From Acidobacteriota bacterium (GTDB taxonomy: Bacteria > Acidobacteriota > Thermoanaerobaculia > Gp7-AA8), in the NCBI GenBank assembly GCA_019244185.1, contig JAFATB010000019.1, positions 192,001 to 256,000 on the forward strand: a stretch of 64,000 bases of DNA, written 5' to 3'. Under the pieces are notes generated by a model. The model was given only the letters and a program-made list of their open reading frames with translations, was not told the origin of the DNA and did not search any database. Position numbers and translations under genes: made by a program. Within the stretch, counting starts at the first letter, position 1. Each line of letters begins with the position of its first letter. This document shows positions 2,468-31,855 of this stretch, in pieces.

Positions 2468-4000
2468 CTACGGACGGACGTCGACTTTCGCAGAGACGAC
2501 TCCTTTCAGCACCCAGCCCCACGATTCGTCCACCGGATACTGTTCCGGCACAAATCGCCGTTGCTCCTCCGTCAGCTCGTCGACGGCGATCCCGACGAAG
2601 ACCTCGTAAAGCCCGGTGGTCTTAAACTCATGCTCGACACTCATCGCGGGCCCGAACGCGATGATGTCAGCCCCAGGTCGGTTCGGCTGCTCGCCGAAAC
2701 TCACGTAGTACTTTGTGTGATTGCTCCGAAACTGCGGCGCCGGCTCGATCCGGAGGCTTACCCAACGCGGCCGACCGTTCACCTGCTTCACCGTGAACGT
2801 GGTCTGCGTTAAGGGGTCGTGCAACGTTTCGCCCGGGCGTGTCGTCCTGAAGCTGGCGTCGATGCGATCTTTTAGCTCTTGGTGACCAGGCCAAAGGTAG
2901 AGGTCCGGCCGATCGCCCGTCCATTTCGCAGGGCGCACGGCGTACGTAAAACCGAGAAAGATCCTCGTCTGCACCTTCGGTGGTAGGGCACAAAACGCGG
3001 CGCCAAGCGTGAGGAGCGAGATCGCGATGATGCCAACCTGCTTCGCTGCCTTCGTGAGCGTTTCCCACCACGTCACCGTATCGTTGACGGTCAACAGCCC
3101 TGGGTTTTCGCCGAGCAGCCGAACGATGCGGAGGGGAAGGTACCCAAGCGCTTGCCGGACGACTGCAAGCACGCGATTAATCTCCGTGCGCAGGCGCGTG
3201 TCATCGTCGGCGAGGGCCGCGTCAAGGCGGTAGTTCGGGTTCTCGATCGCGACCTCCGGGTTCGCACGAATTTCAAGCTCCCGCCCATCACGGGAGATGG
3301 ACGCCGAAATCCCCGCGCCCACTCCACGCCGCGCACCGCGGCCGCGATCATTGGGCCGAAAGAACCACACGCGTACGTCGTAGATGCCCGCGGTATCGCT
3401 CGTTCGATTGGTCTTTTTCGCATCCATCCATGCGCGGTGGGCGTCGTCCCACCGCGAGAACGTGCCCGCCGGATCGATGTTCGCCTTTCCTTTCCGTTGC
3501 GCGGACCAAAGCGCACCGATCGTCGCGTAGTCGCACGCCCCGATCGGTGCTTCCCCCCGGATGCAGCTGGCGAGCGCGCGGGTCGTGATGAAGTTGAAGA
3601 GGAAGGCTCGCGACGACGCTTCGCTGTCCGCGAGCAGACCACGCGTCTCTAGATACACGCGGATTTCCTCGAAGGCTTCGATGAGCAGCGGCACAGCAAT
3701 CGCCGCGTCAAGGGCCGCCGCAGTGTTGCCTGCCTTGGAAGGCAAGGTTGCCTCCTCGATCTTGCCCAGGCCGCATTCGCACCGCCGTGAAAATCTCTGG
3801 CGTGAACGCTTCAAGCTCCTGGCCCGGCCCGATCCTGACGACGTTGCGTGCACTTCGGGCGCACGTGCATGGTCGTCGGCTTCGGTCCTGTCGCTCCAAC
3901 AGTCCTCACTCTCGTTCTTGCGGCTCGCACGAGCAGCGCGCGGCTTTCGCGTGCCGCGAGAACGGTACGAGCGCCGCGCGCGGCATTCGTGTCCCTCCAA
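2468..4000 (-). CDS. Hypothetical single-pass membrane protein with a PKD-like C-terminal domain (true start uncertain, probably downstream of 4000)
   Basis: Long ORF; hydrophobic segment VGIIAISLLTLGAAFCAL; beta-rich tail YYVSFGE...VEHEFKTTGLYEVFV. Confidence 0.55.
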   Translation of the reverse strand: MEGHECRARRSYRSRGTRKPRAARASRKNESEDCWSDRTEADDHARAPEVHATSSGSGRARSLKRSRQRFSRRCECGLGKIEEATLPSKAGNTAAALDAAIAVPLLIEAFEEIRVYLETRGLLADSEASSRAFLFNFITTRALASCIRGEAPIGACDYATIGALWSAQRKGKANIDPAGTFSRWDDAHRAWMDAKKTNRTSDTAGIYDVRVWFFRPNDRGRGARRGVGAGISASISRDGRELEIRANPEVAIENPNYRLDAALADDDTRLRTEINRVLAVVRQALGYLPLRIVRLLGENPGLLTVNDTVTWWETLTKAAKQVGIIAISLLTLGAAFCALPPKVQTRIFLGFTYAVRPAKWTGDRPDLYLWPGHQELKDRIDASFRTTRPGETLHDPLTQTTFTVKQVNGRPRWVSLRIEPAPQFRSNHTKYYVSFGEQPNRPGADIIAFGPAMSVEHEFKTTGLYEVFVGIAVDELTEEQRRFVPEQYPVDESWGWVLKGVVSAKVDVRP

Positions 4001-4569
4001 CGCCGCAGCTTCGATTCATTCAGACTATCTTACATAAGGAGTTCCTGCGTTACATAGGGGCGATTGGAAGGTGGCATGTGGAAGTCGGCTCACCGCCCAA
4101 TGCCTCACCCGTTCAACCGCGTCGGGAGCCGGCTGACCGCCTGACTCACTACGAGAACGAGGCGGCTTGGTGTTAGAGCACCAGCACCGCCTCGGTCACG
4201 GTCGTACCACACGGGCCGACCGACCTTCTCGACGCCTGCCGAACGCGTGACGAGCGCGTCTCGGCAGCTACTCAGTACCGTGAAGGAGCACGATATGACG
4301 AGCCTTGAAGGCACTCGCAAAGTACGCGATTCACAAGATTTCGCAAGTGGTGAGCGTGATCGCACCACACCAAATCATCTTCTGTGGCGTCCAGCGGAGG
4401 AAGCCGAACGGCCTCCGCGTAACAGCTCCCACGCGCAGCGTGGCGGGTCGGCCCACGGCCCGACGGGTACCGCCTCTGTGCTCACTGCGGGGCGCCGGTC
4501 GGACGACCGGAGCTGATCGCGATCCCCGCGAATGTCCGGACCTGCTTTCCGCTCGGTCCGAACGGAGGC

Positions 4570-5019
4570 GTGCTGATATGGCGACGCGTCCCTGGAACGA
4601 AAAAGTGGGTCCAGATCGAATACTTTCCACCCGATGACGAGCGCGATCAGTATGTTCCGGTCGATCCGCTGCTGAACTGCGAGGCCGCGGCGATCACGCT
4701 CGGACTGACCCTCAAGGCGCTGTACCCACGCGCCCCCTTCATGGCGTCCTCCGAAAAGCACGGAAGCCGGTGGTTCTTCCATCGAGATACCCTCCTCGCA
4801 ATCGACGCCGCGACCGAGCGCGCGATGCCCTCACGACGCGAGGTGCTCGCCGGGCGCGAAGCACGGCGCCGCCGCGGAGAGGGCCGTCGCGGGGGATCTC
4901 ATTCAGCCGCCTGCGACCGCCGCCATGGCGGCAGATGCCATCCGGCGCCGCAGCGAATTCCCTCATCGGAGGACGGCGCGGCGGTCACGCGTTCGATCTT
5001 GGACGATCTTGGGAAATGA
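4570..5019 (+). CDS. Excisionase-like helix-turn-helix protein
   Basis: PLLNCEAAAITLGLTLKALY...KHGSRWFFHRDTL matches the HTH_17/Xis pattern; GGAGG RBS before the GTG. Confidence 0.6.
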   Translation: MLIWRRVPGTKKWVQIEYFPPDDERDQYVPVDPLLNCEAAAITLGLTLKALYPRAPFMASSEKHGSRWFFHRDTLLAIDAATERAMPSRREVLAGREARRRRGEGRRGGSHSAACDRRHGGRCHPAPQRIPSSEDGAAVTRSILDDLGK

Positions 5020-5078
5020 GTCGCGCCGGCCTGCCGTCAGGCTCGGCCGGCCGTATTCACCCATTCTTGTTGCACGAA

Positions 5079-5107
5079 GGTAGGGAAGTGCTCGGATCGG
5101 TCACTCC
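5079..5107 (+). promoter_or_regulatory. Bipartite motif GGTAGGGAA-N14-CACTCC, copy 1 (upstream of recombinase 1)
   Basis: The same 15 fixed bases with identical spacing occur at four intergenic positions. Confidence 0.75.
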
Positions 5108-5172
5108 TAGAGAGGTAGCCTCGGGCGGTCGAATCCGCTATGTCTCCGCGCATGAAGGAAATGCGAGGACAT

Positions 5173-5766
5173 ATGCAAGAGGGTGCCTACCAGGTCCGTA
5201 ACTCGGAGTTTCATCTCACGCCCGAAGAGCTTTCGACGCTCATCGCAGGCGCGCAGTCGGAGAGAGATCGTCTCATGGTGTTGGTCTTGGCGTTTACAGG
5301 AATTCGCCGCGCGGAGCTGCGCAGCCTTCGGCCCGCCGATATCGACAGCGTCACGGAACGCCTCATCGTGCGTCGCGGCAAGGGCGGCAAGCAGCGCATC
5401 GTCTTTCTGCCAAAGCGCGTCGCCTTGGATGTATGCCGGTACGCAGGAGCGCACGCGGAGGCGTTCGTGTTCCCAGGCCGAAACGGCGGCCCCATGTCGC
5501 TGCGCAACATCAACTACATCCTCACGCGTGTCGGGAAACACGCGGGCGTGGCCACGCCAAATCCGCGATATGTCGGCATCGGCCCGCATCTCCTGCGCCA
5601 CTCGTTCGCCCGAAACTGGAAGCGGAGCGGCGGCTCCATCGAGTCGCTGCAAAAAATGCTCGGTCACGCGAGCGCGAAGACAACACTGGATTGCTACGGA
5701 ACGGAGGACTTGCGCGAAGTTGAAGCAAACTACCGCGAGCGTTGCTCGCGGCTCGTTTCGAGCTAG
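5173..5766 (+). CDS. Short tyrosine recombinase (catalytic domain only), recombinase 1
   Basis: TGIRRAEL (R), GKGGKQR (K), HLLRHSFA (HxxR), LGHAS..TT.DCY (H, Y); about 197 aa. Confidence 0.92.
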   Translation: MQEGAYQVRNSEFHLTPEELSTLIAGAQSERDRLMVLVLAFTGIRRAELRSLRPADIDSVTERLIVRRGKGGKQRIVFLPKRVALDVCRYAGAHAEAFVFPGRNGGPMSLRNINYILTRVGKHAGVATPNPRYVGIGPHLLRHSFARNWKRSGGSIESLQKMLGHASAKTTLDCYGTEDLREVEANYRERCSRLVSS

Positions 5767-5794
5767 TTTGCTCACTTTCGCCAGAGTAGGAAAA
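5767..5794 (+). repeat. 28-bp putative recombination site (left), TTTGCTCACTT-TCGCCA-GAGTAGGAAAA
   Basis: Starts 1 nt after the recombinase stop codon; inverted copy at 8342-8369 with an identical 6-bp core. Confidence 0.7.
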
Positions 5795-5798
5795 GCTC

Positions 5799-7208
5799 GT
5801 GCTGACCGTCGCCATCGTTCTGTTCTTCGTCACCACCCTTCTCATCGTTCAGGTGGCTATACGAAACCGCCCGCTCAAGTTGTACCGGCCGCTCGATGAC
5901 GATGACGTACCGTTTCCAGCTGCTGGACAAGCGAGCACCGTGTTTTCCCTCGCGGCGCTCTTTGGCTGCTACCCAGGCATCTTTCTCCTGATCGGGGGAA
6001 TTGGATTCGTGGGTGTTGCCGGCGGCAGCGCGGCCGCCCTACTACTCATCCGCGCGGCGCAGGCAGGTCACGAAGGCGGCTACGAGACGTTTCTCGAGGA
6101 TTTTCGCGACCGCTTTCGGGACACAGGGACGTTTTTCTTCGCGCTCTTCATCCTTCAGATTGGCTTTGCCATCTCTGAACTCGTCTTTCTACGGGTTGTA
6201 CTCCTACTCGCATTCGGCCTCAGTCCGAGCACGGCCAGCTACGCGGCGCTCGCCGTAGCAGTCGTTGGTTACTGCTACTGCCTCACGGGTGGCTATAACA
6301 CGGTCTTTCGCACAGACATTGTCCAACTTCTGACGGTCGCCGGGATGTGCCTGCTTCTCCTCGGCGCGCTCGCGACCTCACTCAGTCTTCCTGAATTCCT
6401 GACTGCCGCCGGAGCCAAGATGGTGCATCACGGTGGGTACTGGACGGCGGGATTCTTCCGATGGTCGTGGGTTGAACGCATCCTCGACTTCTCCTCCGGT
6501 TTCCTGCTTGGCTTTGCATTCCTACTCGTGAGCCCCGACACATGGAAACGGGTCTACATCGTTAGTCGCGTCCCGTCGCGTCGTGGCATCTCCCTCCTAT
6601 TCGTGGCGGCGGCATTCCCGTTCGTTGCAATCACGCCACTCGTTCTCGCGCTGCCAAATCTTCCACACGGCGTCGTCGACCCAACGGTGTTCCTCCAGCG
6701 CCTGGCCGGCAACCGAATCCTTCTTGGCGCAACGCTTATCGGTGTCTTCGCCAGCTTCCTCTCGTCATTCGACAGCGCGCTCATCGCAGCAACGCATGTG
6801 AGTCTCCTCTCGGCGCGTCGCGCGCGGCCTGCACTCGAAGAACTTGACCGGTTCCGATATCTAGCCGCGCTTCACTTCGTGATTGTGTCGCTGGTCTTTG
6901 TCATCGGGAGTCGCTTCGGAAATCCTGGGATTATGGCTACGATCCTCATGGGAACGTATCCCGTGCTCGGAGGCCTGCTGATCGGAACCCGCGCGGGCAC
7001 CCGCAATCTCCCGTCGGGAGCGTTCGGACTAGTCTTCCTTCTCGGCTGTGTCGCGTGGATTGTCTTCACGATGAGCGACGAAATGCGGTTCGAGGTGGGC
7101 CGGACGACAGACCTGAACTTCGTGCCGGCCGCTGGCTGTGTGCTCCTGGCATCCGCGGCGATGTCATGGATTCTCTCTTGGATTCCGCAGCAGCGGGAGG
7201 ACGAATGA
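5799..7208 (+). CDS. Sodium:solute symporter-like membrane transporter
   Basis: About 13 hydrophobic segments; YCLTGGYNTVFRTDIVQ and ASFLSSFDSAL motifs of the SSS family. Confidence 0.75.
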   Translation: MLTVAIVLFFVTTLLIVQVAIRNRPLKLYRPLDDDDVPFPAAGQASTVFSLAALFGCYPGIFLLIGGIGFVGVAGGSAAALLLIRAAQAGHEGGYETFLEDFRDRFRDTGTFFFALFILQIGFAISELVFLRVVLLLAFGLSPSTASYAALAVAVVGYCYCLTGGYNTVFRTDIVQLLTVAGMCLLLLGALATSLSLPEFLTAAGAKMVHHGGYWTAGFFRWSWVERILDFSSGFLLGFAFLLVSPDTWKRVYIVSRVPSRRGISLLFVAAAFPFVAITPLVLALPNLPHGVVDPTVFLQRLAGNRILLGATLIGVFASFLSSFDSALIAATHVSLLSARRARPALEELDRFRYLAALHFVIVSLVFVIGSRFGNPGIMATILMGTYPVLGGLLIGTRAGTRNLPSGAFGLVFLLGCVAWIVFTMSDEMRFEVGRTTDLNFVPAAGCVLLASAAMSWILSWIPQQREDE

Positions 7209-7795
7209 CTGACTTCGTTCTCGGCTACGCCGAGAAGCTTTGGGATCGCACGACGCCGGAGTATCGCGCCTTAGTCGTCGCGTTCATCCTCGCCCCCACA
7301 ATGGGCGCACTTCTCATCTGGTTGGCCGGGCCAGCGCCCTCCACGCATGCAACAATTTCCCCACCGCTGAACGTCATGCCACTTCGAGCACATGCAGCCG
7401 GACCGCGAGACCCCGCCACCACGGTCGTAATCGTGCAGCCGACGGAGGCGACCTTTACGATGCCATGGACAAGGCCACTAAGCGCCCTTCCCACGTCCCT
7501 CAGCGAGGAGCAGTGGCGAGGAAACACGGCGAAGATCTCGCAATCAAACCGTACAATTTCCATTGTCGTGCCGCTCGCTGGGGTGCAGGAACCCTTTGTC
7601 TTTCTGACGCAAGACGCGCCGCCGGATGCGGTGGAAATTTCAGGGCGAAAGTATGCGATGGCAGACTTGCGACTCCGTTCGCAGCAGGCAACCGACATTC
7701 TTCTTGGGGTGCTAATCTCCGCCGCGTTCGCTCTCGGCGTCGGCGTGTCGACTGCCAGCATTCCGATCCAGGCGCAGGAGCACGGAAGCGGTTAA
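7205..7795 (+). CDS. Hypothetical two-TM membrane protein
   Basis: ATGA overlap with the symporter; N- and C-terminal hydrophobic segments. Confidence 0.65.
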   Translation: MTDFVLGYAEKLWDRTTPEYRALVVAFILAPTMGALLIWLAGPAPSTHATISPPLNVMPLRAHAAGPRDPATTVVIVQPTEATFTMPWTRPLSALPTSLSEEQWRGNTAKISQSNRTISIVVPLAGVQEPFVFLTQDAPPDAVEISGRKYAMADLRLRSQQATDILLGVLISAAFALGVGVSTASIPIQAQEHGSG

Positions 7796-8038
7796 CACCG
7801 TGCAGAGGAATACGAGAATGGGATCGTTGAGCGGAACTCCGAGATATCGCGGCCCTGGATCGTTGTGTGCCCACGCCCGCCAGTGGAGTAAGAACGGATC
7901 CCATGGAAAGAAGATGAGCGCCACGGCGATGGCCGTACGTAGCACCGCGAGGATCTCTCGCCGTGAACGCACACAACTCACGAGAGCGATGATCGCGGCG
8001 ATCCCGACGCCGAGGTTGAGGACCGAATAGCGTGTCAT
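7712..8038 (-). CDS. Lycopene cyclase domain-like small membrane protein (CrtYd-like)
   Basis: FFPWD....WRAW.H....RYLGVPLND..LVFL pattern; ATGA-coupled to the upstream paralog. Confidence 0.6.
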   Translation of the reverse strand: MTRYSVLNLGVGIAAIIALVSCVRSRREILAVLRTAIAVALIFFPWDPFLLHWRAWAHNDPGPRYLGVPLNDPILVFLCTVLTASVLLRLDRNAGSRHADAESERGGD

Positions 8039-8343
8039 GTCCGCGCTCCTCGCCGAAGTGTGTTGCGCAGAACGAGTCTCGTGATGACGGTATGACCAAA
8101 GAGCGCTAACCATTCCTCCAGGGGCAACCGCGCGACACGAATCGGCAAGGTACCTTCAGCCGGGAAGTACCAGACACCCGTCTCGAGCGCGATCTGATCG
8201 ACGATGAACCAGAGCGCGATAAGCACAACCGACGTACTCCAGAGTCGTCCCGAGCGAAGGTCTTCCAACGTAACCGCGGGCCACGCGAACGACATCACGG
8301 CCGCAAGCAACGCGAGATCGAAGTAGAGGTAGTCGATGTTCAT
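8035..8343 (-). CDS. Lycopene cyclase domain-like small membrane protein (CrtYc-like)
   Basis: WFIVDQIALETGVWYFP...LPIRVARLPLEEWLAL is the lycopene cyclase domain pattern; ATG at 8343. Confidence 0.7.
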   Translation of the reverse strand: MNIDYLYFDLALLAAVMSFAWPAVTLEDLRSGRLWSTSVVLIALWFIVDQIALETGVWYFPAEGTLPIRVARLPLEEWLALFGHTVITRLVLRNTLRRGART

Positions 8344-8369
8344 TTCCCACTTTGGCGAAAGTGTGAAAT
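8342..8369 (-). repeat. 28-bp palindromic putative recombination site (right), ATTTCACACTT-TCGCCA-AAGTGGGAAAT on the minus strand
   Basis: Arms are 10/11 palindromic; 22/26 identity to 5768-5793 in inverted orientation. Confidence 0.7.
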
Positions 8370-8520
8370 GACGCTTACCTGCGCCCCCGATAGGAGGATT
8401 TCGACCGTTTCCGCAGATCGTCCGCCGCTGACTACTACAATGGTTTCCGCGACGGGAGATTTTGCACAGCACTCGGCTACGCGCCGCACTGATCTTTCTC
8501 AAACCTCTATCCCCACACCT

Positions 8521-8952
8521 ATGGCGATCAACATTCGCATGGTCGGAATGGTCACGGACGCCGTTCGCAGCCTCACGTTCACCCGCTCGGGTCTTCCGCG
8601 GTTCCGATTCGGCGTCCGCGTCGGAACCGTTCGCCCGAAGCAGTACGCCGTGACGCTCTATGGCCCGATGGCGCGGTTCGCAGACACCGCCCTTCGTACC
8701 GGGCAACGCATCCGCGTCGAAGGCGCGTACCTCCGTCGGTCGTCGCCGTACGAAGGTCTCGTGCGCGCAGACATGATTCGCCACGTCGGCCGCGCGGTGC
8801 CTCCGTACTTCGGAACCATGGTGCGGTTCGTTCCCGGAGCGCCGCCGACGCCGGCCGCCGCGCGGCCTCTCGCCGCCGATGCAGACCATCGCTCGGCGCA
8901 TGCGGTCAAGACCGCGCGCGTCATTGCTGACGCGATCGCGGCGGCGGTCTAA
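8521..8952 (+). CDS. Divergent single-stranded DNA-binding (OB-fold)-like protein
   Basis: IRMVGMVT...TRSGLPRFRFGV...YAVTLYGPMARF....LRTGQRIRVEG resembles SSB beta-strands. Confidence 0.55.
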   Translation: MAINIRMVGMVTDAVRSLTFTRSGLPRFRFGVRVGTVRPKQYAVTLYGPMARFADTALRTGQRIRVEGAYLRRSSPYEGLVRADMIRHVGRAVPPYFGTMVRFVPGAPPTPAAARPLAADADHRSAHAVKTARVIADAIAAAV

Positions 8953-9166
8953 CCACACGCGAGAAGACGGCTTCTCGGGAGGCGGTCGTAGCGTGCAAAT
9001 CTCCGTCGCCTCTTCATCGCCGTGAATGGGACGCGACTTCGACCGAGTCGCCTGACGATGCCGTCCGCATCAGCGATGCTGCTGCTCGCGAGTCGTGAGA
9101 TTGCACCGGCTGATTCGTCAGCCGCTCACGCGGTTCTTTCTCAAGCCATCCTTTCACTCCACTCCT

Positions 9167-9544
9167 ATGCGAAGCGTGAACAAAGTGATCCTCGTCGGCC
9201 ACCTTGCCGCCGATCCGGAGCAGTCCACCACGACCGCCGGACGGGTGCGCGTGACCTTCCCGGTCGCAACGCACCGGGATACCACCTCCGAGGGCGCGAA
9301 GAAGGACGTCACCGACTATCACCGGGTGACCTCCTGGGGGAAGCTCGCCGAAATCTGCGGCAAGTACCTCGCGAAAGGCCAAGGCGTCTATGTCGAGGGC
9401 ATGATCCTGAATCGCGCCTACGAGAAGGACGGCCAGCGCCGCTACGTCACCGAGATCCGCGCGGACGAAGTGAACATGCTGACGTGGAAGAAGCGGGATG
9501 GCGTCTCGAACGCCATCCTCAGCGATCTGCCTGACGGCGTGTAA
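9167..9544 (+). CDS. ssb: Single-stranded DNA-binding protein
   Basis: MRSVNKVILVGHLAADPE...WGKLAEICGKYLAKGQGVYVEG...YVTEIRA; lacks the canonical DDIPF tail. Confidence 0.95.
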   Translation: MRSVNKVILVGHLAADPEQSTTTAGRVRVTFPVATHRDTTSEGAKKDVTDYHRVTSWGKLAEICGKYLAKGQGVYVEGMILNRAYEKDGQRRYVTEIRADEVNMLTWKKRDGVSNAILSDLPDGV

Positions 9545-12156: not shown

Positions 12157-12184
12157 TCTCTCGAAAATGCAGAAAAGCGTCAAA
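12157..12184 (+). repeat. Putative recombinase-2 site (left), TCTCTCGAAAA-TGCAGA-AAAGCGTCAAA, overlapping the start codon
   Basis: TGCAGAAAAGCGT (12168-12180) is the exact reverse complement of 12818-12830; the left arm is degenerate. Confidence 0.55.
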
Positions 12185-12808
12185 CTCACCGGCCTCGTGT
12201 CGGCAGAACGAAACGTCCCGACCACGCGCCCATCTGGCGTGCGCTACGTATCGAAAGAGGAGGTCGAACAGTTCTTCGCCGCGATCCCGAGGGAGAACCT
12301 TCGAGATCGGCTGCTGTTCGACCTCATCTACCGTCACGGGCTGCGACGTCGCGAAGTCGCGCTCATCAGCGTGGACGACGTCTCGCTCCGCCACAGGTCC
12401 ATCTGGATCAGCCGAGTGAAGCAAGGGATCCCAGGCATGTACCGGCTACATCCGAAGACGATCGCGCTGCTGCGCGACTACCTGCCGACGCGGCACGTCG
12501 GCAACGGCCGGTTTCTCTTTCAGAGCACGAGGCGACCGGGTGCCGCGATCTCACCCTCGATGATCTACTACCTGTTCCGGCGCTATGCGACGGCGGCCAA
12601 CCTGCCGGAGGGCCGGCGGAACGTGCACGTCTTCCGGCACAGCATCGCCGTGCATTTCATGAACGAAGGCATCGACTCGGCAGACGTGAAGGACTGGCTC
12701 GGCCATCGGAGCATCTCCTCCACGATGATCTACGCCCAAGTAACGAATAAGCGGCGAGACGCGACCTACCAGCGCGTGCGCTCGTCGAAGGAGATCGCGA
12801 GGACATGA
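12167..12808 (+). CDS. Short FimB/FimE-like tyrosine recombinase, recombinase 2
   Basis: RDRLLFDLIYRHGLRRRE, ISRVKQG, HVFRHSIA, WLGHRSISSTMIY. Confidence 0.92.
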   Translation: MQKSVKLTGLVSAERNVPTTRPSGVRYVSKEEVEQFFAAIPRENLRDRLLFDLIYRHGLRRREVALISVDDVSLRHRSIWISRVKQGIPGMYRLHPKTIALLRDYLPTRHVGNGRFLFQSTRRPGAAISPSMIYYLFRRYATAANLPEGRRNVHVFRHSIAVHFMNEGIDSADVKDWLGHRSISSTMIYAQVTNKRRDATYQRVRSSKEIART

Positions 12809-12813
12809 CGGCC

Positions 12814-12841
12814 ATTCACGCTTTTCTGCAAAAGCGTCAAT
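12814..12841 (+). repeat. 28-bp palindromic putative recombinase-2 site (right), ATTCACGCTTT-TCTGCA-AAAGCGTCAAT
   Basis: 11-6-11 structure with arms 10/11 palindromic; begins 6 nt after the recombinase stop. Confidence 0.7.
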
Positions 12842-13393: not shown

Positions 13394-14392
13394 ATGAATC
13401 ATCCTCGGCGTCCAAGTGCGTTGTTCACCATAATGTTACTGCTCCTCGCTAGCTGCGCGAAAGATGAGGGACGCACAACTTCAGCGGCCCCCGCAGCGCG
13501 CGCATCTCTTCGGGTTGCTGTGAATCCGGTGCCGCAGTCCGCGCTTGTGATCATCGCCGCAGAGCGCGGCTACTTTGCACGCGAAAACCTCGACGTCACC
13601 GTCAGCCGTTTCCCTACGGGCAAGCTCGCCTTTGACGCGGTGCTCGGAGGGGCGGCCGATGTTGCGACGGTCGCCGACGTCCCAATCATGTACGCGCTCA
13701 TGTCCGGGCAGGCGCCAGCAGTACTCGCGACAATCGAACGATCTGGGAAAAGCGTCAAACTGCTCGCCCGCAAGGACGCCGCAATCGCGTCTCCTGCGGA
13801 CCTTCGCGGCAAGAAGGTCGGTACGTTCAAGGGTAGCAGCGGGGAATTCTTTCTCGACGCGCTGTTGGCCAAGCACCACGTACCATCCGCCGAAGTGGCG
13901 ATCGTACATTTACAGCCACCGGACCTAGTGACGGCGATCACCAGAAAGGACGTCGCGGCTATTAGTATCTTCGAACCCCATATCCACAACGCGGCTACAG
14001 TTCTCGGATCGAACGCGTTGGTGGTCGAGGACCCGTCGGTCTACACCGAAATCTTCAATGTCGCGACGACAGAAAAGGCCCTCGCCGCTCGGCAAGACGC
14101 CTTTGTCTCGTTCCTACGCGCTCTGCAGCGAGCCGCGGACGACATCAGGCGGGATCCGAATGGCGCGCAGGCGAGCGTCGCTCGATTCACCCAGCTTGAC
14201 CCAAATGTGCTGCGTGAAATTTGGCCGATGTTTCAGTTCACCATCACGACCGATCGTGTGCTCCCCGATCTACTACGACGCGAAGCGGATTTCGCCGTGC
14301 GTTCTGGGTCGCTGCCAGCGCCGAGCTCGGAACCACAGTTCGAACGTGTGCTCAAACCTGAAGTTCTTAGTAAGGCAACCGCTACGCCATGA
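13394..14392 (+). CDS. ABC transporter substrate-binding lipoprotein, NrtA/SsuA/TauA family (alternative start 13379)
   Basis: Lipobox LLASC; AAERGYFARENLDV; ADLRGKKVG; AAGGAG RBS. Confidence 0.9.
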   Translation: MNHPRRPSALFTIMLLLLASCAKDEGRTTSAAPAARASLRVAVNPVPQSALVIIAAERGYFARENLDVTVSRFPTGKLAFDAVLGGAADVATVADVPIMYALMSGQAPAVLATIERSGKSVKLLARKDAAIASPADLRGKKVGTFKGSSGEFFLDALLAKHHVPSAEVAIVHLQPPDLVTAITRKDVAAISIFEPHIHNAATVLGSNALVVEDPSVYTEIFNVATTEKALAARQDAFVSFLRALQRAADDIRRDPNGAQASVARFTQLDPNVLREIWPMFQFTITTDRVLPDLLRREADFAVRSGSLPAPSSEPQFERVLKPEVLSKATATP

Positions 14393-29786: not shown

Positions 29787-30821
29787 ATGGGTTCGCTCCT
29801 CTCCGGTGCGTGGCCGACACCACCGCCCGCTCCTCGTCTCGACGCGTTCCAACGCCTCGCGGTCGGTGCGCCCGCATCCGCTGAACTCCCGCCTCCGGCG
29901 ACGCTCGCCGAGCTTGATCAAGTCTTCCGGCGGTTCTTCGAGGCCGCCACCGCCGTGGCGGGCCTGAGCCGCTGCACCGCACACAACTTTCAGGTGGCGT
30001 ACCGCTCGTTCCGCGCCTACCTCGTGACGCAGGTGCCGGACGACGGGGCTCCGCTCGGCGCGACCCTGCACGACATCGACGGCTGGATCGCCGTGCTCCG
30101 GACGCGTCCGCGGCCTGCCGCGGCGAACAGCATCCACCGCTACTGGCGGAGTGTCCGGGGCTTCTTCGGTTACGTTGAGCACCTGACCGGGCTCCCGTCG
30201 CCGTTCGCGGGGCTTCGGCCGCCGCGCCTGCCGGACCGAATCCCGAAGGCCCGTACACCGGCCGAGTGCGCCCGCATCCTCGCCGCCGTCGCGAACTACC
30301 CTGGCTGGTCGGCGTTCGAACGCGGCCGGAACCGCGCGCTCATCGGCATGGCGCTCTACGCTGGACTTCGCCGCGGTGACCTCGTGCGGCTCCAGTACGC
30401 AAACGTCGACGTCCAGGAGCGCACGATTCGCGTCGAAGGCGGCAAAGGTCGCGGCGGTGGAAAGGATCGGGTCGTGATGATGGCGCCGGACCTCCTCGAC
30501 ATCGTGCTCGCTTACCTCCGCGAGCGGCATCGGCGCCGGCTGGTCCTGCCCGAGTTCTTCGCGAGTACCGCAGGTCAGCGACCGATCGCTGACGTGACCA
30601 TTAACCGGCTCGTCCGACGCCTCCGAATCGCCTCCGGTGTGCCGTTCACGCTCCATAGCCTGCGGCACTCCTTTGTGACGCAGCTCCTACGTGCAGGCGT
30701 CCCGCTGCACACGGTGAGCGCGCTCGCGGGTCACACGCAGATCACGACAACCGCCGGATACCTCCGAGTGTGGGACGAGGACAAGGTTGCCGCGGTTCAG
30801 CGGCTGTCCTTCGACGGCTGA
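29787..30821 (+). CDS. XerC/D-like tyrosine recombinase (recombinase 3)
   Basis: YAGLRRGD, GKGRGGGKDR, HSLRHSF, LAGHTQITTTAGY; N-terminal core-binding region present. Confidence 0.92.
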   Translation: MGSLLSGAWPTPPPAPRLDAFQRLAVGAPASAELPPPATLAELDQVFRRFFEAATAVAGLSRCTAHNFQVAYRSFRAYLVTQVPDDGAPLGATLHDIDGWIAVLRTRPRPAAANSIHRYWRSVRGFFGYVEHLTGLPSPFAGLRPPRLPDRIPKARTPAECARILAAVANYPGWSAFERGRNRALIGMALYAGLRRGDLVRLQYANVDVQERTIRVEGGKGRGGGKDRVVMMAPDLLDIVLAYLRERHRRRLVLPEFFASTAGQRPIADVTINRLVRRLRIASGVPFTLHSLRHSFVTQLLRAGVPLHTVSALAGHTQITTTAGYLRVWDEDKVAAVQRLSFDG

Positions 30822-30832
30822 TGGTGCGCGTG

Positions 30833-31855
30833 TCACCCGGCGTCGCGTTCGATGCCTCCGAGCGGCAGGTGAAGGCGCGCCGCGTACGTCGCGTGTTCGC
30901 CCTCGAAGACGTGCGAGTACCGCTGGAGCATCGCCAGGCTTCGGTGCCCGAGCAGATCCATGCTCACGCGATCCGGCACCCCTGCCTGCCGCAGGAAAGT
31001 GGCGTAGCTGTGCCGGAGCATGTGGGGCGTCACTAAAAACCCTGCCGACGCGCTGATGCGCCGGAACAGCCGTGTCACCGCGACGAGCGGCATTGGCTGG
31101 TCGCGCCAGGTGGAAACGAAGAGCGCCGGAGTCAGTACCCGACGCTGCCCGCGAAGGGTCAGGTACGCGCGCAAGAACGCCGTCAGCTGCGGGGTCACGT
31201 ACGCGGTGCGATCGCGTCCGCCATGCCGGCCCTTGCCGCGCCGGATGAGCAGGCGTCCGCGTTCGAGGTCGAGGTCGGCGAGTTCCAACCGGAGCGCCTC
31301 GCCGCGGCGAAGCCCCGCGCAAACGTACGTCGCGATCAGCGCCACGTTTCGAGCACGTTCGAACCGATCGGCTACGAGACTGCGGGCAGAGGCGAAGACG
31401 CGATCCACTTCGGACGGGGTGAGGCAGCGCGGCTGCGGAAGCGGTGCGCGGGGACGATCGAGCAACTCGAACGGGTTCAGCGTACCGTCCAATCGTTCAA
31501 ACCGCCGGAAGATCGAGACCATCGCTTCGAAGTACGCGGCGACCGACGTGCGCTCGCAGTGCTCCATGCGGAGCGTTGCGATCCAACCTTCGATCACTTG
31601 TGTCTGCGCTGGCATATCGCCGCGCGCAAACGCGTCTGTCCGCGTCCCCCGCAGGTAGCGGGCAAATCTTCGAGCTGCGACCCGCCATCGCCGCGTCGTC
31701 GCTGGTGAGAGCCCTTCGATTCGCTCGGCCGCCAGGCAGGTTTCTTCGACACGCGTGAGGAAGGTCTCGACCGAAGCGACCGCAAACGGGCGCGATCGCG
31801 CCTGGCGGTGCCGACGATTCGGAAACCGCTCGTGAGGATAGGGAGGGGAGTGCAT
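30833..31855 (-). CDS. XerC/D-like tyrosine recombinase (recombinase 4)
   Basis: AGLRRGE, GKGRHGGRDR, HMLRHSYA, LLGHRSLAMLQRY. Confidence 0.92.
   Translation of the reverse strand: MHSPPYPHERFPNRRHRQARSRPFAVASVETFLTRVEETCLAAERIEGLSPATTRRWRVAARRFARYLRGTRTDAFARGDMPAQTQVIEGWIATLRMEHCERTSVAAYFEAMVSIFRRFERLDGTLNPFELLDRPRAPLPQPRCLTPSEVDRVFASARSLVADRFERARNVALIATYVCAGLRRGEALRLELADLDLERGRLLIRRGKGRHGGRDRTAYVTPQLTAFLRAYLTLRGQRRVLTPALFVSTWRDQPMPLVAVTRLFRRISASAGFLVTPHMLRHSYATFLRQAGVPDRVSMDLLGHRSLAMLQRYSHVFEGEHATYAARLHLPLGGIERDAG

Follow-up and report, generated by a model that had tools for sequence, protein, structure and literature searches.

Inversion of a 2.6-kb cassette of convergent membrane-protein genes next to a mini tyrosine recombinase gene in an Acidobacteriota genome

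The stretch of DNA considered here, called the window below, comprises the 64,000 nucleotides at positions 192,001 to 256,000 of contig JAFATB010000019.1 (assembly GCA_019244185.1), from an Acidobacteriota bacterium of the lineage Thermoanaerobaculia, Gp7-AA8. It contains a cassette that holds four membrane-protein genes as two convergent pairs, enclosed by two inverted sites and adjoined on the left by the gene for a mini tyrosine recombinase (coordinates are collected in Table 1). One pair consists of the gene for a 469-amino-acid protein with some likeness to sodium:solute symporters and a gene called g3 here, and the other of two genes, cycA and cycB, whose products resemble a lycopene-cyclase domain. 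The inversion of this cassette is real, as demonstrated by the contigs of three possibly related metagenome samples together with comparative genomics. With a probability of roughly 0.8, the locus is an active site-specific DNA inversion switch, in which the two promoterless gene pairs would be read alternately from the promoter of the recombinase gene.

The direct evidence for inversion comes from three metagenome runs (X1, X2 and X3) that contain the whole stretch, and whose contigs were compared with positions 4600-9000 of the window; a further run, X4, contains only parts of the stretch at a depth of 2-4 and was left aside for orientation. In X1, X2 and X3 alike, the left flank contig runs up to 5783, where the left core finishes, the right flank contig begins at 8353, the first base of the right core, and the cassette is a contig of its own (2591 nt, 5773-8363). 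Two alternative contigs of 49 nt span each junction, one in the reference form and the other in a flipped form that carries two differences in the inner arm and a 9-nt tail. The tail reads TGAACATCG after position 5793 at the left junction and GCACGAGCT before position 8343 at the right junction, and an in-silico flip of the window segment between the cores reproduced exactly both of these alternative forms. An earlier note on this DNA, made from the sequence alone, had proposed that the cassette inverts between its sites and had suggested a search for the inverted junctions. Both predicted junctions are indeed present in all three runs, at 32-41% of depth, and homologous genomes carry the cassette in either orientation (see below).

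The flipped share of depth in X1, X2 and X3 is 0.41, 0.33 and 0.41 at the left junction and 0.32, 0.32 and 0.35 at the right junction, and the depth of the two forms adds up to that of the flank in five of the six cases. No other sequence difference was found across the 4.4 kb compared in these contigs, and the flank contigs run for 4-28 kb as single pieces. Because the outer-arm differences stay with the flank while the inner-arm differences travel with the cassette, strand exchange can be placed within 5773-5783, an interval that contains the core. Both orientations thus occur in one population with reciprocal junctions in each of the three runs, the behavior that defines the invertase class.

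The two sites share an 11-6-11 layout of arm, core and arm and are inverted to each other, and the core TCGCCA is identical in both once the right site is read on the minus strand; the sequence agrees on both points with the earlier note. That note had also placed the left site 1 nt after the end of the recombinase gene, and the site does begin at the nucleotide after the stop codon (TAG, 5764-5766). The high identity of the sites in inverted orientation was likewise borne out, with the count of 22/26 corrected to 22 of 28 positions. Tyrosine recombinases require matching cores of 6-8 bp in partner sites, and a pair of inverted sites gives inversion. Each site is near-palindromic (12 of 14 pairs in the right site and 9 of 14 in the left, counted by eye), and the polarity of the core in the window therefore comes down to one mismatched pair. 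The claim of an asymmetric core accordingly stood only in part: the cores are identical, but their asymmetry is weak in the window and becomes clear in homologous loci (TCGTCA in L021 and TTGATA in L022, where L denotes a locus of the comparative set introduced below).

Chance does not account for the site pair. When the arms were made into a motif, with a 4-nt gap at the center of the palindrome and up to three mismatches allowed, it matched only the two sites in the window, and none of 100 shuffles had any match. In the complete genome of 5,304,552 bp the same motif again occurs only in these two places, and a reversed control gave no matches.

Comparison with other genomes extends these observations. 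Among 60 relatives, one (G026, of the same genus) carries the same locus, found in a DNA search with 69% identity over 808 nt; the six other DNA matches in these relatives span 29-44 nt (E 2.8e-4 to 9.1e-4) and were taken as chance. A scan of genome contigs added five more close homologs of the recombinase, and a scan of metagenome contigs yielded sixteen at 52-97% identity and three at 39-40%. The homologs fall in Acidobacteriota, including Thermoanaerobaculia. The comparative set consists of the 23 loci in which the recombinase is at least 51% identical to that of the window; the three more distant loci (L116-L118, 39-40%) have no site.

The earlier note had asked whether homologs have the same site after the stop codon with different cargo. 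A site lies directly after, or overlaps, the stop codon of the recombinase gene in 21 of the 23 loci, the exceptions being L106, a decayed copy, and L023, which has different cargo. The inverted partner lies 2575-2628 bp away in all eight loci with enough downstream sequence, and in L023 the pair, identical at 25 of 26 positions, precedes the recombinase gene. The loci have six different cores (TCGCCA, TAGCCA, TCGTCA, TTGATA, TTGCCA and TGCGGA), while within the nine site pairs the cores have no mismatch in 54 positions. The arms of the eight downstream pairs are mismatched at 35 of 176 positions (20%). The sites thus have the build of core-type recombination sites, with inverted arms around a matching center of 6-8 bp. 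A tyrosine recombinase needs exactly this for strand exchange: cores that may differ from locus to locus but agree within each pair.

The orientation of the cassette also varies among the loci. The same four cargo gene families are found across the scored loci, and among the 14 loci whose orientation could be scored, the transporter gene comes first in nine and the cyclase-domain genes in five. The cassette is of one type in the window (transporter first) and in L020 (cyclase first), whose cyclase-domain proteins are 77% and 73% identical. In addition, seven of 21 contigs end inside the site or at most 111 nt past it, as expected where assemblers meet mixed orientations.

The recombinase belongs to the Phage_integrase family (PF00589, E 3.2e-27, 95.8 bits against a cut-off of 27.1, residues 26-186). 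Its catalytic residues R57, K81, H150, R153 and H176 and the tyrosine nucleophile Y186 are invariant in seven homologs, and its RHR and GH motifs align with those of XerA (PDB 5hxy). The alignment with the solved XerA structure covers only residues 137-315 of the latter (E 1.6e-17), and this, together with an open frame of only 215 amino acids, shows that the protein lacks the usual N-terminal core-binding domain. The nearest sequence relatives are Xer and integron integrases, and all of them score below the family cut-offs: 115.9 bits against 220 for NCBIfam XerA_Arch (E 2.3e-33), 93.1 against 335 for XerC, 71.1 against 330 for XerD, and 62.8 against 265 for the integron integrase TIGR02249. 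The protein thus lies outside the Xer family by score and, consisting of the C-terminal domain only, lacks the two-domain Xer architecture. The Fim-type invertase families NF007370 and NF007371 give still lower scores (36.6 and 35.3 bits against cut-offs of 221 and 222). We infer that the adjacent recombinase is the catalyst of the inversion, on the ground that gene and site occur together in 21 of the 23 loci.

How inversion could affect expression is suggested by the position of the start codons. As the earlier note had it, a start codon points inward next to each site: the GTG of the symporter-like gene (5799) follows the left site by 4 nt, and the ATG of cycA, at 8343-8341 on the minus strand, shares bases with the end of the right site. 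The distance between the start codon and the inner end of the site is 0-10 nt in every locus examined, L023 included if translation there begins at internal Met codons. Neither pair therefore has space for a promoter ahead of it inside the cassette, a point made in the earlier note for the window that extends to the homologs. At the other end of the genes, the 3' ends of cycB and g3 overlap by 84 nt in the window, and convergent overlaps of 30-147 nt occur in six of six loci examined, so that no terminator can lie between the pairs. A scan of positions 4400-9200 for terminator consensus sequences gave four terminator-like sites, a count that does not exceed that of shuffles.

Upstream of the recombinase gene lies a promoter-like bipartite motif that is also found in this position in L019, L020, L101, L102 and L103. 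In the form GTAGGG[AT]-N12-14-GTCAC, the motif occurs ten times in the genome, against one occurrence of a reversed control, and all ten copies lie within 80 nt upstream of an open reading frame on the same strand. Three of the ten fall in the window, at 5080 (+), 13275 (+) and 25746 (-), and the other seven are elsewhere in the genome. The motif is probably a promoter read by a sigma factor, possibly an alternative one. It is absent from the right flanks of the loci checked, and these flanks show no homology between loci, the window and L107 excepted. That flipping alternates the expression of the two pairs is likely, given the start codons close to the sites, the promoter-like motif before the recombinase gene and the overlapping 3' ends.

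In the mechanism proposed here, the 208-amino-acid recombinase would act on the two inverted 28-bp sites, with exchange in or beside the shared 6-bp core, and would thereby flip the 2.6-kb cassette with its two convergent, promoterless pairs (the SSF-like transporter gene and g3 on one side, cycA and cycB on the other). The recombinase gene and whichever pair faces it would then form one operon transcribed from the recombinase promoter, and the inner arm of the site (GGAA/GGGAA) is located where it could act as the ribosome-binding region. Read-through would run antisense over the distal pair, which would be transcribed only in this antisense sense, and a clonal population would be a mixture of two membrane-protein states.

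Several observations weigh against an active switch of this kind. X1, X2 and X3 may be the source samples of the genome and come from one campaign, and so they are not independent populations; moreover, what their contigs provide is depth of k-mers rather than read pairs. For X1, the two forms total 22.6 at the left junction, against a flank depth of 34.3. The promoter-like motif precedes the recombinase gene in only six of the 22 loci checked, and a scan of positions 4400-9200 for consensus sigma-70 promoters found one promoter-like site against a shuffle mean of 0.9, a level that lends no support to a promoter at any point, the stretch before the recombinase gene included. A promoter facing inward could be hidden in the 150 bp that separate the right site from the divergent SSB-like gene, and it would allow both pairs to be expressed. 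Alternate expression is itself deduced, from the arrangement of sequence signals. As for the catalyst, the genome encodes at least nine other tyrosine recombinase matches besides the adjacent gene. Finally, the family is rare, with one locus in the 60 relatives and no ortholog at E<=1e-40 in 400 other sampled genomes of the phylum.

The cargo is far more variable than the recombinase in some pairs of loci. The window and L107 have recombinases that are 97% identical and cargo proteins at 33-42%, L022 and L108 have recombinases at 95% and cargo at 40-43%, and L019 and L020 have recombinases at 90% and cyclase-domain proteins at 37-39%; the window and L020, for their part, share recombinases at 71% and cyclase-domain proteins at 73-77%. 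Recombinase and cargo identity are uncorrelated overall (Spearman 0.24, 0.23 and -0.02, none significant). At the DNA level, identity through the recombinase gene is 95% for the window and L107, 86% for L022 and L108, and 82% for L019 and L020. In all three pairs this high identity stops 10-11 nt past the core, with little or no similarity inside the cassette. The stop at the site suggests cassette replacement, with the sites as borders of a hypervariable block that appears from these alignments to have been replaced. A tentative extension, which we consider possible but rather unlikely, is a two-in-one platform in which the recombinase flips a promoterless two-operon cassette, with phase variation between two membrane-protein states as the result, and also permits replacement of the whole cassette at the same sites. 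If true, the locus would be a natural counterpart of recombinase-mediated cassette exchange, hypervariable, swappable and bounded by 28-bp sites. The platform family would also be general, because L023 uses the same type of site around genes for an SHMT-family protein and a STAND-like ATPase.

The same data bear on an alternative in which the inversion is real but the main role of the locus is not phase variation but that of a replaceable cassette, integron-like or by cassette exchange, with flipping as a by-product and both pairs expressed from promoters in the flanks. The sharp end of DNA identity past the core, the combination of 97% identical recombinases with cargo at 33-42%, and the different cargo that L023 holds between the same kind of sites would all fit such a role. 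However, two inverted sites cannot excise a circle, and neither a free cassette nor an empty site was found among the loci examined (L106 is decayed and not empty). The right flanks, where one of the promoters would have to lie, are unconserved and none has the promoter-like motif, and a flipped share that is stable at 32-41% in three runs fits a maintained mixture. This alternative is therefore judged improbable as a replacement for the switch, with which it is compatible; cassette replacement may simply be an added property of the switch.

Contigs cannot separate ongoing switching from two co-existing sub-strains with fixed opposite orientations, the product of one past inversion with no present switching, and the three runs may come from one campaign. 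Yet no other difference appears over the 4.4 kb compared, the long flank contigs are single pieces, and the flipped shares are similar in all three runs. Among the loci, an intact recombinase and its sites are conserved at 51-97% identity with the orientations scattered, and many assemblies break at the site. Fixed sub-strains are thus a remote explanation. The least credible reading, to which we give almost no weight, is that the palindromes are operators, which the earlier note itself had named as the alternative to inversion, or RNA hairpins; the alternative junctions would then be assembly or library artefacts. The near-palindromic form of each site agrees with it, as does the RNA of the right site, which surpasses its shuffles in folding (z -2.8; 5 of the 200 shuffles did as well), but the RNA of the left site does not surpass its own (z -0.65). 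Artefacts are also hard to reconcile with flipped junction contigs that reach 9 nt past the site into the far end of the cassette, with alternative junctions that are reciprocal and that together with the reference form add up to flank depth in five of six cases, or with homologous genomes that have the cassette in either orientation. Operators or hairpins were accordingly rejected as the sole explanation, on the strength of the junction contigs and of the two orientations among homologs; an additional regulatory role of the palindromes may exist beside the inversion switch.

The closest known system by function is the G segment of phage Mu with its Gin invertase, along with the Cin, Pin and PinQ systems. 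In the G segment, convergent alternative genes lie between inverted sites and are read from an outside promoter, next to the gene of a serine invertase. The Acidobacteriota locus likewise has a segment of about 3 kb, short inverted sites, two convergent gene sets, a putative outside promoter and an adjoining recombinase gene, and here too the flip would decide which gene set is read. The Mu-type systems depend on serine invertases, together with an enhancer and Fis, and swap the 3' parts of one tail-fibre gene, whereas the present locus has a tyrosine recombinase and swaps entire genes, each with a start codon of its own; its sites lie in the 5' leaders, and its cargo consists of chromosomal membrane proteins rather than phage tail fibres.

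Two tyrosine recombinase systems also invite comparison. The fimS element of E. coli is a 314-bp promoter element with 9-bp repeats. FimB and FimE resemble the present protein as tyrosine recombinases of about 200 amino acids without an N-terminal core-binding domain, encoded beside an inverted element and associated with mixed populations. Unlike fimS, however, the locus described here flips 2.6 kb of genes between 28-bp sites, and its recombinase falls far below the Fim-type family (36.6 bits against a cut-off of 221). The dif sites of the Xer systems consist of two arms around a 6-bp central region in an 11-6-11 layout, and the sites of the cassette share this layout and the length of 28 bp, just as XerA, XerC and XerD are the best sequence relatives of the recombinase. 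The differences from Xer lie in the missing N-terminal domain and sub-cut-off scores, in the presence of two inverted sites 2.6 kb apart instead of one site per chromosome, and in the outcome, which is inversion and not dimer resolution.

In the published work, the PinQ segments are related invertible segments of the Mu G type, as described in PMC12529663. Gene-altering inversions, in which a neighbouring recombinase inverts coding DNA to give alternative products in one population, are reported in PMC9881135 and PMC7672463. As described there, inversions of the PMC9881135 type act inside coding sequences and reshuffle the parts of one gene; in the present locus the sites are outside coding sequences and the flip swaps entire alternative operons. 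A term search of the main text of PMC9881135 gave no hit for 'lycopene' or for 'Acidobacteri'. No published description of the system was found in the literature at the level of main texts; supplements, which were outside the scope, might list such loci.

DNA switches as such are known, and what appears new here is a probable tyrosine-recombinase switch that flips whole operons, combined with hypervariable cargo bounded by the sites. Programmed inversions are well studied in gut bacteria and pathogens, but none was found in the literature for soil Acidobacteriota or for this set of genes. What the locus would flip is neither a promoter nor a piece of a gene but whole operons that lack promoters of their own, and its recombinase, at 208 amino acids, is among the smallest tyrosine recombinases. 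The need for a 6-bp core that matches between partners suggests that the orthologs, with at least six natural cores, provide sets of non-cross-reacting sites, and these could serve as a small tool for inverting DNA or exchanging cassettes. The cargo is notable in joining a rare symporter-like family with lycopene-cyclase-domain proteins in a genome that has no detectable carotenoid pathway. Hypervariable cargo with sharp borders points to strong diversifying pressure on the inner membrane, and one may speculate that phages or toxins are its source.

The relationship of the cargo proteins to known families is mostly distant. The 469-amino-acid protein has no match in Pfam, NCBIfam or PADLOC and so does not qualify for the SSF family (PF00474), but against SSF clusters it has an Atlas feature score of 0.97 and, in its predicted structure, a TM-score of 0.77. 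This likeness is a lead. The family of the protein is small, with only 20 relatives at E<=1e-5 among 5.8 billion proteins. The ATG of g3, the gene of a small bitopic protein, overlaps the stop codon of the symporter-like gene (ATGA). The g3 protein has no family in Pfam, NCBIfam or PADLOC, and its best Atlas score of 0.78 gives no lead; g3 does occur in homologous cassettes, at 24-28% identity. PADLOC returned nothing for any of the four cargo proteins.

The cyclase-domain proteins both score below the curated cut-off of 39.4 bits for TIGR03462, cycA at 36.4 bits (E 5.5e-9) and cycB at 22.3 bits (E 1.4e-4). The cycA protein also matches Pfam Lycopene_cyc (E 1.7e-5), the sole match to this family in the genome, and it retains a PLEE motif, which we take to be typical of the lycopene-cyclase domain. 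A search of the genome found no CrtY-type cyclase and no CrtI above the cut-off (51 bits against 238), and it found one SQS_PSY gene. With no CrtY or CrtI above cut-off in the genome, the cyclase-domain pair is unlikely to cyclise lycopene here. A true heterodimeric lycopene cyclase of the CrtYc/CrtYd type was considered for cycA and cycB and rejected, in view of the sub-cut-off domains and of the missing CrtY and CrtI. As a matter of speculation, the pair may act on another isoprenoid.

Table 1. Features of the inversion locus, with positions in the window
Feature	Position	Strand	Details or basis
Promoter-like bipartite motif, GGTAGGGAA-N12-GTCACTC	5079-5106	+	35 nt upstream of the recombinase start codon
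Mini tyrosine recombinase, 208 aa, catalytic domain only	5140-5766	+	Pfam Phage_integrase PF00589
Left recombination site	5767-5794		Outer arm 5767-5777, core TCGCCA 5778-5783, inner arm 5784-5794
Invertible segment	5784-8352		All DNA between the two cores; 2.6-kb cassette
Polytopic membrane protein, 469 aa, distant sodium:solute symporter relative	5799-7208	+	Atlas and structure
g3, 196 aa, one hydrophobic segment near each end	7205-7795	+	
cycB, 108-aa membrane protein, weak lycopene-cyclase-domain match	7712-8038	-	TIGR03462
cycA, 102-aa membrane protein, lycopene-cyclase-domain match	8035-8343	-	TIGR03462, Pfam
Right recombination site	8342-8369		Inner arm 8342-8352, core 8353-8358 (TGGCGA on the plus strand), outer arm 8359-8369

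Three of the homologous loci show further features. What is left of the module in L106 (3514-4045) is half of a left site, a truncated symporter gene fused to it on the minus strand (residues 9-156), and then a complete site; neither g3 nor the cyclase-domain genes survive. L113 is without a partner site because its contig ends, at 3775-3805, in an apparent sequencing adapter and hence in a border that is not biological. The cassette of L023 (2169-5823), next to a recombinase 51% identical to that of the window, is 3.6 kb long and holds other cargo, an SHMT-family gene (E 4.3e-79) convergent with the gene of a 796-amino-acid AAA_16/TPR STAND-like ATPase.

Elsewhere in the window, a second mini tyrosine recombinase gene lies at 12167-12808 (213 amino acids, PF00589, E 9.2e-28). 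A near-perfect palindrome of 26 bp (12815-12840), unique in the window, begins 7 nt past its stop codon. No clear inverted partner was found for this second recombinase, only half-sites, at 12173-12183 (over its own start) and 13748-13758. It may represent a second switch built along the same lines. Additional tyrosine recombinase matches are located at approximately 30324-30761 (+) and 30935-31423 (-). To the right of the cassette are two tandem SSB-type genes, one with a weak match (8521-8952, E 0.0028) and one with a strong match (9167-9544, E 1e-29), and the region around the cassette may be part of a mobile island.

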